From the sequence record NC_020079.1: 64,000 bases of DNA. The stretch is one strand, 5' to 3'. The translations under genes and the position numbers were made by a program. Origin of the DNA: Escherichia phage phAPEC8. The notes below the pieces were generated by a model. It did no database searches, was not told the origin of the DNA, and saw nothing but the letters and a program-made list of their open reading frames with translations. Position 1 is the first letter of the stretch, and each line of letters opens with the position of its first letter. Below are positions 51,185-56,100 of the stretch, in pieces.

Positions 51185-52063
51185 TTATTTAAGGATTGTT
51201 GCTTTGGTTAAATCTTCCATCAGACCTCGAATCTCATTGAAGCACAGAAGGACTGAAGCTTCAATACTGCCTTCTTCGTCTGCAAAATATTTCGGAAAAC
51301 GTAGTTTAGAAAGTTTAAACTCTTTATCCACTACGAAATCTACAACACCGTCATATTCAAGACCGATTGCAACAACATCTTTACCATCTTCTTTTAGTTC
51401 GACAGCTTTAGACTCGTATAGGGATTCTTTACTCCAAACAACAACGCCCTCGCTATCCTCCATTTTGATATAATTTCCGAGAGTAATACGATCTGCTTCG
51501 TGATTCTCCAGCAATTCACCAAAACCTTTTACAATAGCTTCTTCATGCACACTAAAACCTACCGAAGGGAAAGTCCCCAGAACGGAACGGAGGAAAGAAG
51601 TAATCTCTTCTGCAACCTTTTTACTTCCATTAAGAACATAAAGAAGATTCGTAGTTTTATCCAAGACAACATAGTTAAAGAAATCTTCAGGTTCTGTTTC
51701 AGGCAATAGTGCAAATTCAATATCTTCCTTCATTGCTTTTACTACTTCTTTATCGACATAAAACTCTTTACCTTCGCTCTCCATGTCCTGACGCATTTCT
51801 TCTAGACGTTCATTCAGAATACGTTTAACTTTCTTTTTATCTACCTTCTTCACAGATTGACCTACATTAAGCAGTTCAAGATCTGAAAACTCTTTTACAA
51901 ATTTAGAGTCATCTTCGAAACGAACAAGACCGATAGTGTGTGACTGGGAGCCTTCTGCTGTTACAAATTCCAGAGGAATATCTGTAATGTTGTTAAGGGA
52001 TGCTACAGAAGCATTGTCACCAACAACCATAGGCAGAGCGGATTTAAAAGATTTTACAAACAT
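51185..52063 (-). CDS. RdgC-like recombination-associated protein
   Basis: FALLPETEPEDFFNYVVLDKTTNLLYV...LRSVLGTFPSV parallels E. coli RdgC. Confidence 0.6.
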   Translation of the reverse strand: MFVKSFKSALPMVVGDNASVASLNNITDIPLEFVTAEGSQSHTIGLVRFEDDSKFVKEFSDLELLNVGQSVKKVDKKKVKRILNERLEEMRQDMESEGKEFYVDKEVVKAMKEDIEFALLPETEPEDFFNYVVLDKTTNLLYVLNGSKKVAEEITSFLRSVLGTFPSVGFSVHEEAIVKGFGELLENHEADRITLGNYIKMEDSEGVVVWSKESLYESKAVELKEDGKDVVAIGLEYDGVVDFVVDKEFKLSKLRFPKYFADEEGSIEASVLLCFNEIRGLMEDLTKATILK

Positions 52064-52119
52064 GTTTCCTCCTATTTAATACATCTCACATTACCGCCCG
52101 TAAAGGGCGGCTTACAACA

Positions 52120-52845
52120 TTACTTGTTAATAATACCTGCAATATTAGGTTTGACAAAGGTCGATGGTTTCATGATCTTACCTTTATCATCAAAGAACAC
52201 ATACACTTTCTGTTTTTCATTATAAACAGCATGAACACCAGTGTATGCCCCTTCTGGACGATTGGCATTTCGTTCTTCAATTGCAGCGCATTCTTGTGCA
52301 ATGGCTGAATCGATATCCGAAGTTTTCCAAGTTTTCAGCAACTGTTGTTTAGTTGGATACTTGGAATCATTACTTTTCAATACCTCTTTAATAACTTTCT
52401 TTTCTGGATATTTTGAACGGATTAGAGTGTCACGAGACATACGCATAATACCAGCAGCCATTAGTGCCATTTGAACTGGCTCTGTAAATGTTTGTTCCAA
52501 AGCATCAAAATCAGTATACACAGTTGGAGTAAAAACATCGCCTACAGCATAGTCCAAGAAATTCATCGTATGTTCTTCACCAAAGAACATGTAAGTCAGA
52601 TAACTGGATACTACAAAAATATCCGCTGCTGCATCCAAGAGTTCTACATGATCGTTTACTTTCGCGGCTGTTTCATACTCTTTAAGCTCTTCACGAACGA
52701 ACCCGATTTGGGACATAAATAACTCTTGAGTGAATTCAGGTTGTTCACCACCTCGTGCTTTGGCATTCCAATCAATTACGTGCTTTGCTGCATTTTTGAA
52801 AAATTCAGTATCGAATTTAATATCTTTAAAAAAATTCTCGATCAT
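52120..52845 (-). CDS. MazG-like nucleotide pyrophosphohydrolase-like protein
   Basis: EELKEYETAA...ELLDAAADIFVV (ExxE...DxxD pattern). Confidence 0.4.
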   Translation of the reverse strand: MIENFFKDIKFDTEFFKNAAKHVIDWNAKARGGEQPEFTQELFMSQIGFVREELKEYETAAKVNDHVELLDAAADIFVVSSYLTYMFFGEEHTMNFLDYAVGDVFTPTVYTDFDALEQTFTEPVQMALMAAGIMRMSRDTLIRSKYPEKKVIKEVLKSNDSKYPTKQQLLKTWKTSDIDSAIAQECAAIEERNANRPEGAYTGVHAVYNEKQKVYVFFDDKGKIMKPSTFVKPNIAGIINK

Positions 52846-52854
52846 TATAACTCC

Positions 52855-53037
52855 TTATTTAAAATAGCTTTCTAGAAAGTTGCTAATATTTACTACAGAC
52901 TCACCCATGTAAATCCCTGCGAAACCGAAAACAAGCATACGTGGAATATTGAAATACCATTTATCTGCCGGAAAAGATGCCAGAATTACAATAGCAATTG
53001 CTATCAACATCATAAGAATTGTTGCTAAAATTATCAT
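52855..53037 (-). CDS. small membrane protein
   Basis: two hydrophobic helices. Confidence 0.45.
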   Translation of the reverse strand: MIILATILMMLIAIAIVILASFPADKWYFNIPRMLVFGFAGIYMGESVVNISNFLESYFK

Positions 53038-53090
53038 AAAAATGCCTCCAGGTATTTTTCACAATGATAAGCTAAGAACATTTTTCCTCC

Positions 53091-54218
53091 TTATTCTGCT
53101 GGTTCCCAAGTGCCTGGGATCATTTCTCGAATACGAACACCAACAGGTTTTGTTGGAATACCTTCATCTGAAAATTCTTCATACTCTATTTCAACGAACT
53201 GATTAATCAAGGTAGAAGCATTCTCTGCTTTACGATAATTGATAGTCTCATGAGCATCTTTACGCATTAAGAATTCGACTACTTTACCATTTTCCATCTC
53301 GCCTGTCAACACTCCATCACCATTTTTATCACTTTTTGAATTTATTACTTTAACTTCAAGCGTATGACGAGGCTTACGTTTAATAACATCATAAGAACGT
53401 TTATCAAATTCGTAAACTCCGTGAGCATTACGATATACTACACCTTCAGCTTTCTCAAGTAAAGCTTTTTCATAGAAAGCATCAAACTGTTCTTGGTTTT
53501 CAATATACTCTGTATGAACTACACAAATAAGCTCATCAAGACCATAATCCTCCACTACTGCCTTAAGAGCAGTAAGAACATCAACACGTTTTTCAAACGG
53601 TAGATCTGGAACTGGAATATCGTATACGTAATAGTTCAGCAAAGGTGTATTTGCATTATGCTTCTTCCAGGCACTGTTAATTTGTTGTAGACTAAGGACA
53701 CCTAACCCAGCAAACACTTCACCATCAAGAGGATGACCAACAACTTCACTAATAAAGTTTGGAATACCTTTCCAATGAGGTGGCAGGTTATACACTTCCC
53801 CAGCTTTTGATAAACACTCCCCTTTCATGTTAATCATAGAACGTAACCCGTTCAGTTTGTATTGTGCATAACCAGGGAACACAACCCTTTCAGGATAATC
53901 TTTATAATCCTGGCATTTCATTGGTGTGGAAGGAACATGGTTTTCAGCTTCTTCTTTTGTTTTATAATAGCCATTCTTTAACTGTTTTGTCCATTTGGCA
54001 AAAGCTTCAAGTTCAGCTTGTTCTTCCGGTGTTGTTTCATTGGAACGACCAATGTTTTTTGCTTCTGCTGTATAAGATTTTTCTGTGATTTTTCCACCTA
54101 CCCTTCCATGAGCTACAGTAACAACTGCACCATCTGTATACACTGTCCACTGTTTAAGTTTTCCTTTTGAATCTTTACCATACAGCGTTTGATTTGTTTG
54201 TTGCATTAGTCCTCCCAT
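53091..54218 (-). CDS. nucleotidyltransferase-superfamily ligase-like protein (DNA or RNA ligase)
   Basis: motif I-like YKLNGLR (KxNG rather than KxDG). Confidence 0.4.
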   Translation of the reverse strand: MGGLMQQTNQTLYGKDSKGKLKQWTVYTDGAVVTVAHGRVGGKITEKSYTAEAKNIGRSNETTPEEQAELEAFAKWTKQLKNGYYKTKEEAENHVPSTPMKCQDYKDYPERVVFPGYAQYKLNGLRSMINMKGECLSKAGEVYNLPPHWKGIPNFISEVVGHPLDGEVFAGLGVLSLQQINSAWKKHNANTPLLNYYVYDIPVPDLPFEKRVDVLTALKAVVEDYGLDELICVVHTEYIENQEQFDAFYEKALLEKAEGVVYRNAHGVYEFDKRSYDVIKRKPRHTLEVKVINSKSDKNGDGVLTGEMENGKVVEFLMRKDAHETINYRKAENASTLINQFVEIEYEEFSDEGIPTKPVGVRIREMIPGTWEPAE

Positions 54219-54538
54219 TTAAAAACTGAAATTTTCAATCTGTTACACACTTCATCCAAATCTGCGTCGAGTAACGTTGTAGATGTTGCCAACATATAAT
54301 CAATGCTTGTGAAACCTTGCCCTTTGGCATAGTCAAACATATCTTCATACATATCTTCTTCAGTCCCGAAACAGAAGTCACCCAAATGCCACATCTTGAC
54401 ACCTGGACTCGTAGCGCATTTATTCCATGCTTCGATCAGTGCTTCTGTCATGTGGTCCATATCTTCCCACGGTCGATATTCAGGAGCAAACTCTCGTATA
54501 CGTTTGTGCATAAAATGCAAATCACTTGTAATAAACAT
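54206..54538 (-). CDS. hypothetical protein
   Basis: ORF; DLH and GD motifs only. Confidence 0.4.
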   Translation of the reverse strand: MFITSDLHFMHKRIREFAPEYRPWEDMDHMTEALIEAWNKCATSPGVKMWHLGDFCFGTEEDMYEDMFDYAKGQGFTSIDYMLATSTTLLDADLDEVCNRLKISVFKWED

Positions 54539-54894
54539 TAGTATAATCCCTCGCTAAATAGGTCACGATCATGACCATTACGTTCGTAGTCAATCTGGTC
54601 TGCGTGTTTTGCAATAATGTATGCATCTTCACGACTCCACCAATTGTAGTATTGATCAATAAAACCTTGATTGTTTGGAAGACAATGCACTTTATCAAGC
54701 ACACCTGCTTCTTTCAATACATTCAACTGTGTAGATAATACAGGATTTGCATGTCGAACACAAGGAATAATTAACTCTTCACCATTATTCAAAATATACT
54801 TATTCGCAGCACAGACTATAACACGTTGCGCATAATGACCCTCACCAATCCAGGTAAGAGGCTGGTAACAAATGTTGTTTTCAATACCACTCAT
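54538..54894 (-). CDS. hypothetical protein
   Basis: ORF tiling. Confidence 0.45.
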   Translation of the reverse strand: MSGIENNICYQPLTWIGEGHYAQRVIVCAANKYILNNGEELIIPCVRHANPVLSTQLNVLKEAGVLDKVHCLPNNQGFIDQYYNWWSREDAYIIAKHADQIDYERNGHDRDLFSEGLY

Positions 54895-55053
54895 TGTTTC
54901 CTAATCCTCCTCTCTTAAGTTATCCTCTAAAAAGCTAGTATCTGGAAGTAAAAGATCATTACTTGTGTCGGGCCAACCCTCTTCTTCTCGGTAGATAAAG
55001 TAACCTTCGTCCTCTTCTTGTTCTGACCAAACCGAATGATGCATGTTCTCTCC

Positions 55054-55398
55054 TTAATAGTGCACACGAATCATTTTAATACCATAACGCAGCATGGATT
55101 CTTTTGCAAGCATGAATTTATCCCCAGCGGCGGGATTAGAAGTATGCACGAAAATGGTAGGTGAACCAAAGCAAGGTTTACCAAACGCCAGAAGTTCTTC
55201 CAGGTACAGGAAAACATCATACCCATCTTGGTCTGACTCCATACCTAAATCATTGTCAAAAGACCACTCGGTTACTCTTCGATACAGTTTAGCAGGATCA
55301 TTAAGAAAAGCCATAGCTTCTTGTGACGTTTTAAACCAAATTGCATCTTCCTGTCCATAGTCGGCTGGGTTCCGCATATCATCTATCCAAACTTTCAT
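55054..55398 (-). CDS. hypothetical protein
   Basis: ORF tiling. Confidence 0.45.
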   Translation of the reverse strand: MKVWIDDMRNPADYGQEDAIWFKTSQEAMAFLNDPAKLYRRVTEWSFDNDLGMESDQDGYDVFLYLEELLAFGKPCFGSPTIFVHTSNPAAGDKFMLAKESMLRYGIKMIRVHY

Positions 55399-55408
55399 AT
55401 AACCTCCT

Positions 55409-55879
55409 CTAAGCTGGCATGATTAAAAAAGAACTCTCCACTTCAAAATGCCAATCCTCCACAAGCCCTGATTCCCAGTCCTTCTCTTCGTGGAAGGAAC
55501 AGATCCAACGGTACATTCCTGGCGGTGTATTCTCCACATCTTCCGGCAACCCATAATCCAAGGCTGTCTTGCCATTCTCTGTAAAACCAGGGTGGAGATT
55601 AGGAGCTTTCAGTACAGAAACCATACCTCCAACATCCACAGCTACGATCCACTCTGTCATGTATGGGCTGTCATATTGAGGCTCATCAGAACCTACCTCA
55701 ACAGCCTCTGTGCGTAAGATGATAATAGGCTGCTCTGTGATTGGGGCTTTGACAATATAACCGTGGTCCTCAAAAAGATCGATAACCTCGAACTCATCGC
55801 CGTTTTCGACACCATAGCTCTTATTCAAAGAGATAAACTTCGGGTTATCATCATAAGCTTTAGTTACTTTAATTCTCAT
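55409..55879 (-). CDS. hypothetical protein
   Basis: ORF tiling. Confidence 0.5.
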   Translation of the reverse strand: MRIKVTKAYDDNPKFISLNKSYGVENGDEFEVIDLFEDHGYIVKAPITEQPIIILRTEAVEVGSDEPQYDSPYMTEWIVAVDVGGMVSVLKAPNLHPGFTENGKTALDYGLPEDVENTPPGMYRWICSFHEEKDWESGLVEDWHFEVESSFLIMPA

Positions 55880-56100
55880 TTTCCCTCCTTCACTTTAACC
55901 TCAAATTCTACAGGCTTACCCTCAATGTAAAAACACTGATACTCTGCCTTATCATCCTCATCACGAGGCCAAGTTACCAAGGAGTTATAGCAATCTTCTG
56001 GTGCTTTGAAGATGGTTTTAGTCTCCATAGTAACATTCCCATTAAGTGTTGCCAATACCACCCACCCAGCTACAGGGATCATAGTGCCTCCACTTTCCAC
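55876..56100 (-). CDS. hypothetical small protein
   Basis: ORF, ATGA overlap. Confidence 0.45.
   Translation of the reverse strand: MESGGTMIPVAGWVVLATLNGNVTMETKTIFKAPEDCYNSLVTWPRDEDDKAEYQCFYIEGKPVEFEVKVKEGK

Follow-up and report, generated by a model that had tools for sequence, protein, structure and literature searches.

The 2019 paper on the ASFV DNA ligase (AsfvLIG) described the N-terminal domain (NTD) of this enzyme as a completely novel fold, unlike that of other ligases. The domain binds duplex DNA, which is contacted by its beta7-alpha3 loop. The AsfvLIG paper also named Asn153, Leu211, Leu402, and Gln403 as unique active-site residues and linked them to recognition of the nick and to the efficiency of catalysis; activity was lower, not higher, in mutants that contain N153D. 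The catalytic core of the ASFV ligase had already been grouped with bacterial and phage ligases by Yutin and Koonin (2009), and a 2020 review (PMC7470946) describes bacterial ligases in which a WGR domain is fused to an NT-OB_2 core. In human LIG1, Asp570 forms a salt bridge with Arg871 of the OB domain, beside Phe872. On the phage side, the rV5 orthologue of the protein studied here, gp88, is listed among the replication enzymes. In the literature that we searched, the coverage of which was incomplete, we found no biochemically characterised phage member of this clade, nor a paper tying the AsfvLIG NTD to the WGR fold or to the phage ligases of the PHROG family phrog_114.

We analysed a 64,000-nt stretch of Escherichia phage phAPEC8 (NC_020079.1), referred to below as the window. 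A preliminary description of this DNA had pointed to a 375-aa ORF with a ligase-like motif I, YKLNGLR, in which Asn takes the place of the Asp of the usual KxDG, and had considered a DNA ligase, an RNA-repair ligase, or a related enzyme. The ORF is real, the motif occupies its residues 120–126 (K121, N123, G124, and R126), and the replacement of Asp by Asn was read correctly (N123). The features of the gene are collected in Table 1. The first ATG of the longest ORF is probably not the one used. At 54208–54204 the sequence reads TAATG, where the TAA ending the preceding ORF and the second in-frame ATG (Met5) of the ligase ORF overlap; the upstream sequence is AAATGGGAGGACTAATGCAA, with GGGAGGA just ahead of TAATG, and in relatives the ligase is annotated from the equivalent of Met5 as a 371-aa protein. 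Because of this overlap, the GGGAGGA element, and the annotation of the relatives, the true coding sequence is most likely 53091..54206, encoding 371 aa from Met5. Residues are numbered here according to the 375-aa ORF, so that K121 corresponds to K117 of the 371-aa protein.

Table 1. Features of the predicted ligase gene in the 64,000-nt window of phage phAPEC8 (residue numbers refer to the 375-aa ORF).
Feature	Coordinates	Strand	Details
Longest ORF of the ATP-dependent DNA ligase	53091..54218	minus	375 aa, ATG; stop codon 53091-53093
Probable true start	54204..54217	minus	GGGAGGA Shine-Dalgarno, then TAATG (Met5)
N-terminal domain, residues 5-98	53925..54206	minus	Four-strand sheet and long helix, WGR-like fold
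Adenylation (nucleotidyltransferase) domain, residues 99-283	53370..53924	minus	PF01068 at residues 99-282; conservation among 263 members
Motif I codons K121-L122-N123-G124-L125-R126	53841..53858	minus	Aligned to AsfvLIG K151-R-N153-G
OB-fold domain, residues 284-375	53094..53369	minus	Profile alignment to ASFV ligase; PF14743 weak; R364 in 254/263

Results of the profile searches placed the protein in the ligase superfamily. In Pfam, PF01068 (DNA_ligase_A_M) matched residues 99–282 with 38.6 bits against a gathering threshold of 26.2, and it was found in all 60 family members tested; in PHROGs, the match was to phrog_114, "ATP-dependent DNA ligase" (E 2.2e-74). NCBIfam returned only DNA-ligase models, all of them sub-threshold, with the Lig E-type PRK09125 as the best. 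The OB-domain model PF14743 (OB_2) also stayed sub-threshold in the query (14 bits vs. a threshold of 28) and reached E<=0.01 in 19 of the 60 members. The earlier assignment to the ligase-like nucleotidyltransferases is thus confirmed, the protein being a covalent nucleotidyltransferase of this superfamily by PF01068 and phrog_114. Homologues are numerous: gp119 of Escherichia phage EF1-1, which carries the annotation "ATP-dependent DNA ligase", matches the translated ORF at 100% identity, and a word-index search recovered 383 homologues. With megablast, positions 52000–56000 matched 126 phage records, mostly Escherichia phages of the genus Phapecoctavirus (phAPEC8-like, ~150 kb), the best of them at 95–98% identity. 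A tblastn search extended the family to 1,009 phage records, including rV5-like, Felix O1-like, and PAK_P1-like phages, in which the gene is mostly annotated as DNA ligase. A HMMER search of 1.84 billion cluster representatives (50% clusters) gave 18,388 matches at E<=1e-3, 3,492 of them at E<=1e-30; among the 150 matches listed, most were full-length at ~350–400 aa. As judged from PF01068, phrog_114, and these numbers of homologues, YKLNGLR is not a chance motif. The gene call as such was already known, since the identical protein carries the DNA-ligase annotation in GenBank.

A profile built from 60 homologues and run against all PDB sequences retrieved only DNA ligases, with the ASFV ligase clearly at the top (E 5.6e-24), followed by Lig E, PBCV-1, T4, Pmar, archaeal, and human LIG1/3/4 enzymes. 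Profile positions 37–363 aligned to AsfvLIG residues 74–411, that is, to the end of the NTD and both catalytic domains. In the reciprocal search, AsfvLIG residues 74–411 matched a single PHROG, phrog_114, with E 6.5e-51. We also built an AlphaFold2 model with a 60-sequence alignment (pLDDT 93.9, pTM 0.83), which shows a beta-rich domain at residues 285–364. In a Foldseek search of the PDB with this model, the three AsfvLIG-DNA catalytic complexes came first (TM 0.76–0.77 over ~410 aligned columns), then T4 ligase, Lig E, PBCV-1, and Pmar-Lig; the best 50 matches listed were all DNA ligases. As the open, non-catalytic AsfvLIG complex gave a TM of just 0.48, the model adopts the closed, DNA-encircling arrangement.

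The catalytic motifs were compared in an alignment of the 263 family members that possess motif I. In the query, the adenylation domain carries motif I (K121-L-N-G-L-R126), motif III (D165-G-E167), motif IIIa (Y199-D200), motif IV (E258-G259), and motif V (K280-x-K282), and the OB domain carries the motif VI-like P355-T-K-P-V-G-V-R-I-R364. K121 and G124 are present in all 263 members, and E167, E258, G259, K280, and K282 in 262; R126, D165, D200, and R364 are kept in at least 95% (R126 in 250, R364 in 254). Motifs III, IIIa, IV, and V are all intact in the ORF and kept in at least 95% of members. It is K121 that is predicted to accept AMP, and with motifs I, III, IIIa, IV, V, and VI intact, nothing in the sequence points to a degenerate enzyme. 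The family profile continues through the ASFV OB domain up to residue 411, including the ...GIP-x-x-x-x-VG-x-RE segment. According to the profile alignment, the nick-site dyad T356-K357 of the query occupies the position of L402-Q403 in ASFV and of R871-F872 in human LIG1. Two deviations were seen elsewhere in the family. Asn replaces Arg126 of motif I in 10 of the 263 members and Asp165 of motif III also in 10; since the division into N- and D-type is identical for both (8+2), these are probably the same sequences, which would form one doubly altered active-site sub-lineage. In six members (P0124, P0145, P0160, P0176, P0177, and P0187; 706–785 aa), motif I is interrupted by an apparent intein of ~330–400 aa, inserted as ...KL(N/D)G / CF.Y ... 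VHN / CR..., so that splicing would give back KL(N/D)GCR.

The NTD was analysed separately with a profile from 44 diverse members, which retrieved the AsfvLIG NTD (E 1.3e-4) and 2ra8 (E 0.039); the aligned segment of 2ra8 is Pfam WGR (E 1.4e-18). The domain shows the features by which a WGR fold is recognised, namely a long helix against which an antiparallel sheet packs, and a W...G(K/R)xGG signature. Its conserved loop K54-N55-x-G57-x-x-N60-E-T62 aligns with the DNA-contacting loop of the AsfvLIG NTD. A direct assignment to Pfam WGR was not obtained: PF05406 gave no match in the query NTD at E<=10 and in none of 60 members at E<=0.01. We attribute to chance a weak Pfam RNase_H match on the NTD (E 0.0077–0.076, sub-threshold), as the fold search leads to WGR and AsfvLIG. 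The NTD is thus homologous to that of AsfvLIG and has a WGR-type fold, the WGR link coming from structure and one marginal profile match.

Compared with the described ligases, the phage protein stands closest to AsfvLIG, yet at only ~21–25% sequence identity. The AsfvLIG NTD comprises 120 residues and that of the phage ligase ~95. Two of the four residues singled out in AsfvLIG are present in the phage enzyme (N123 and L177), whereas its OB dyad is T356-K357, not Leu-Gln. The two ligases also differ in their biology: base-excision repair in a eukaryotic virus for AsfvLIG (NP419L; PDB 6imj, 6imk, 6iml, and 6imn) and presumably phage replication for the query. The phrog_114 ligases of rV5 (gp88), Felix O1-like, and PAK_P1-like phages are full-length orthologues of 26–35% identity and like architecture; they are annotated as DNA ligases, and their motif I has Asn or Asp depending on the lineage. 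The minimal NT-OB_2 enzymes Lig E (4d05, 6gdr, and 8u6x) and PBCV-1 ligase (2q2t) have the catalytic core in common with the phage ligase (profile E 5.5e-19 and ~7e-16, respectively; Foldseek E ~1e-17 to 1e-18) but not an N-terminal DNA-binding domain, and the aligned motif I of Lig E is KLDG vs. KLNG in the phage protein. PBCV-1 ligase has the canonical KxDG. The bacterial WGR-NT-OB_2 ligases (delta-proteobacteria, Planctomycetia, and one Prochlorococcus), compared by their description in PMC7470946, follow a like domain logic; however, their WGR domain is seen by Pfam, while the phage NTD has no PF05406 match. We did not retain the Rhizobium phage P10VF ligase (9fzx) as a characterised relative, because it is T4/Pmar-like and has another DNA-binding domain.

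Taken together, the ORF is, with high probability, the ATP-dependent DNA ligase of the phage, combining a WGR-like N-terminal DNA-binding domain with nucleotidyltransferase and OB domains and using canonical chemistry. The comparisons above establish the family to which it belongs, the integrity of its motifs, and its fold and architecture. From these we infer its chemistry, substrate preference, and role in vivo. Lys121 would attack ATP to form ligase-AMP, with motif VI of the OB domain orienting the pyrophosphate; AMP would then be passed to the 5′-phosphate at the nick, and attack by the 3′-OH would seal it. The three domains would ring the nicked duplex as they do in the ASFV ligase, the NTD standing in for the helical DNA-binding domain that cellular ligases have. 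Asn123 would lie at the nick-proximal position of the canonical Asp. The usual OB partner of that Asp, Arg followed by Phe, is replaced in the query clade by Thr356-Lys357, so the Asp-Arg salt bridge is expected to be absent, as in the ASFV enzyme. The ligase would seal Okazaki fragments as well as recombination and repair nicks during phage replication, independently of the NAD-dependent LigA of the host, a role proposed on the basis of genomic context and the annotation of rV5-like phages.

As Asn in motif I was the feature that had left the identity of the enzyme ambiguous, we followed this position across the family. Motif I is KxNG in 161 of the 263 members, KxDG in 100, and KxEG in 2. 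On a UPGMA tree from which the tested columns had been left out, Fitch parsimony required ~33 changes at residue 123, and 25 contrasts of N- and D-type sister clades were found, i.e., at least 25 independent switches. Position 123 is thus evolutionarily labile. Since KxNG is the majority state here and that of the active ASFV DNA ligase, Asn at motif I is not a mark of RNA specificity; it does not discriminate between DNA and RNA ligases and should not be taken to do so. The equivalents of Arg871 and Phe872 of LIG1 are residues 356 and 357, Thr and Lys in the query clade. Arg356 was present in 26 of the 100 Asp-type and in none of the 161 Asn-type members (Fisher p ~1e-12, phylogeny ignored), and in the five sister contrasts with Arg356 on the Asp side, the Asn side never had Arg356. 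An apparent covariation of N123/K357 vs. D123/F357 was rejected: it largely reflects the clades, as in the 25 contrasts a flip at 123 is seldom accompanied by a change at 357; only the Arg356-Asp123 exclusivity survives, with phylogeny not formally accounted for. This exclusivity is a signature, in natural variation, of the Asp-Arg contact known from human LIG1. We infer that Asn may mark ligases which, like AsfvLIG, do without the Asp-Arg contact at the nick, with no change of substrate class. According to a passage of PMC4797309 that cites this result, Asp29 in motif I of the Chlorella virus ligase is indispensable for step 2, the adenylylation of DNA; the kinetic equivalence of the Asn enzyme therefore cannot be assumed.

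A missing Asp-Arg salt bridge and Phe wedge might give rise to a DNA ligase with relaxed discrimination at the nick, similar to the error-prone ASFV ligase, which might accept mismatched nicks, nicks with damaged or modified bases, or RNA-containing nicks. This would refine the DNA-ligase reading rather than exclude it, and we regard it as rather unlikely. In its favour are motif I Asn and Leu177 (ASFV Leu211, human Phe635), which the phage enzyme and AsfvLIG have in common, the Thr-Lys dyad in place of the canonical Arg-Phe, and the restriction of Arg356 to Asp-type members; in the AsfvLIG paper, moreover, these four positions are connected to how the nick is recognised and how efficiently it is sealed. 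Yet the OB dyad is unlike the Leu-Gln of ASFV, changes in the four residues of AsfvLIG altered efficiency and complex assembly but not clearly fidelity, and 25 or more toggles between Asn and Asp among close relatives suggest near-neutral drift. In its wider form this reading is an equally speculative proposal: the Asn-type phage ligases (N123/L177/T356-K357) and AsfvLIG would together constitute a WGR-clamped lineage lacking the Asp-Arg bridge and the Phe wedge, which may seal nicks that canonical enzymes reject.

A further reading, in which the KxNG motif reflects Rnl-type chemistry of an RNA ligase or RNA-repair ligase, is very improbable. The preliminary description was correct in stating that KxNG occurs in some RNA ligases; fungal Trl1 and MthRnl, where the Asn is dispensable, have it as motif I, and it is present also in the Rnl1-type ligase of sister phages. 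PF09414 (RNA_ligase; Rnl2/Rnl3/Rnl5) matched the query weakly (E 0.011, 16.3 bits), but this is below its threshold of 27 bits, and it reached E<=0.01 in just 2 of the 60 family members. PF09511 (Rnl1) had no match in the ORF, and the capping-enzyme families were absent from its Pfam matches even at E<=10. Searches against the ligase and capping families, which the preliminary description had proposed as a check, therefore left PF01068 as the model that passes. No RNA ligase was among the best 50 structural matches, the C-terminal domain has an OB fold of the DNA-ligase type that includes motif VI, and the NTD matches the AsfvLIG domain shown to bind duplex DNA. Moreover, immediately upstream the sister phages encode a distinct Rnl1-family RNA ligase, accompanied by a phosphoesterase and a P-loop protein that resembles kinases. 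We therefore rejected an RNA-ligase identity on profile, fold, and context; with architecture in addition, the ambiguity between DNA ligase, RNA-repair ligase, and related enzyme raised by the preliminary description falls in favour of a DNA ligase. A catalytically impaired or degenerate homologue, as might be expected from the loss of the motif I Asp given the cited essentiality of Chlorella virus Asp29, is hardly credible either, as the remaining catalytic residues are invariant, Asn predominates across hundreds of phage lineages that are plainly under purifying selection, the ASFV ligase, which shares this Asn, is active and crystallised and is less active in N153D-containing mutants, and the gene is kept in >1,000 phage records.

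The genomic context agrees with a DNA ligase. The gene is part of a long block of minus-strand genes for replication, recombination, and nucleotide metabolism, which includes an RdgC-like exonuclease (phrog_724), a MazG-like pyrophosphohydrolase (phrog_671), exonucleases, a DNA polymerase exonuclease subunit, thymidylate synthase, and ribonucleotide reductase. The GC skew turns abruptly from positive to negative at ~24 kb and becomes positive again at ~58 kb, and these points (~24000 and ~58000) bound the minus-strand early/replication block that holds the ligase. In EF1-1 (L003 7469–10747), we observed HNH endonuclease genes amid the ribonucleotide reductase and thymidylate synthase genes, and also a dTDP-rhamnose-type cluster with glucose-1-phosphate thymidylyltransferase, dTDP-4-dehydrorhamnose 3,5-epimerase, and two epimerases/dehydratases.

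In phages EF1-1 and SKA64, the interval between the ligase and the upstream phrog_839 gene contains a Metallophos_2 phosphoesterase, an Rnl1-family RNA ligase, an AAA_33 P-loop kinase-like protein, and three small genes. The RNA ligase of EF1-1, gp124 (L001 2924–3856; PF09511, 59.5 bits), is of the T4 Rnl1 family and shares with the phage DNA ligase the covalent lysine nucleotidyltransferase superfamily and the KxNG motif. Since its motif I is K-V-N-G, both the RNA and the DNA ligase have KxNG in this phage lineage. However, gp124 is the product of a separate gene, has neither an OB/motif VI domain nor a WGR-like NTD, and is absent from the window. The lineage thus has a dedicated RNA healing-and-sealing cassette distinct from the ligase ORF, which is further evidence that the ORF encodes a DNA ligase.

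Compared with EF1-1 and SKA64, ~2.3 kb is missing from the window, with a junction near 54352–54358 where the flanks overlap by 7 nt. The missing stretch covers the C-terminal two-thirds of the phosphoesterase, the Rnl1-family RNA ligase, the P-loop kinase-like protein, and the three small genes. A chimeric 110-aa ORF remains (54206–54538, minus strand), in which the N-terminus of the phosphoesterase (phrog_547) is joined to the C-terminal end of a small protein (phrog_16431). The junction was contiguous in none of 120 matching phage records, and the Rnl1-type RNA ligase gene of the sister phages was absent from the whole 64,000-nt window. The RNA-repair cassette has thus been lost from the window by a 2.3-kb deletion. 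Another difference lies just past the ligase stop codon, where a 139-bp indel between TTCTTAGC direct repeats (53071–53078) deletes the greater part of a 64-aa small ORF that EF1-1 and SKA64 possess and leaves a 15-codon remnant. We considered it as a second unusual deletion and rejected this, as it is a common polymorphism: many other phapecoctaviruses align with the window here without interruption.

As a gene call, the ORF changes nothing, as the identical protein is already annotated and the orthologues are routinely counted among the replication genes of rV5/phAPEC8-like phages. What the comparison adds concerns the family. The NTD fold and the residues Asn153 and Leu211, which had been called unique to ASFV, are common to thousands of phage ligases, and the NTD fold is of the WGR type. 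This bears on arguments that treat these features as ASFV-specific drug targets and on a phage origin of AsfvLIG, and the family offers many uncharacterised enzymes for enzyme discovery. If the proposal of a WGR-clamped lineage with relaxed specificity is true, such ligases may seal mismatched, damaged, hypermodified, or ribonucleotide-containing ends, the Asn-type phage ligases would represent a large natural reservoir of relaxed-specificity ligases, and the "unique" features of the ASFV ligase would be a phage inheritance.
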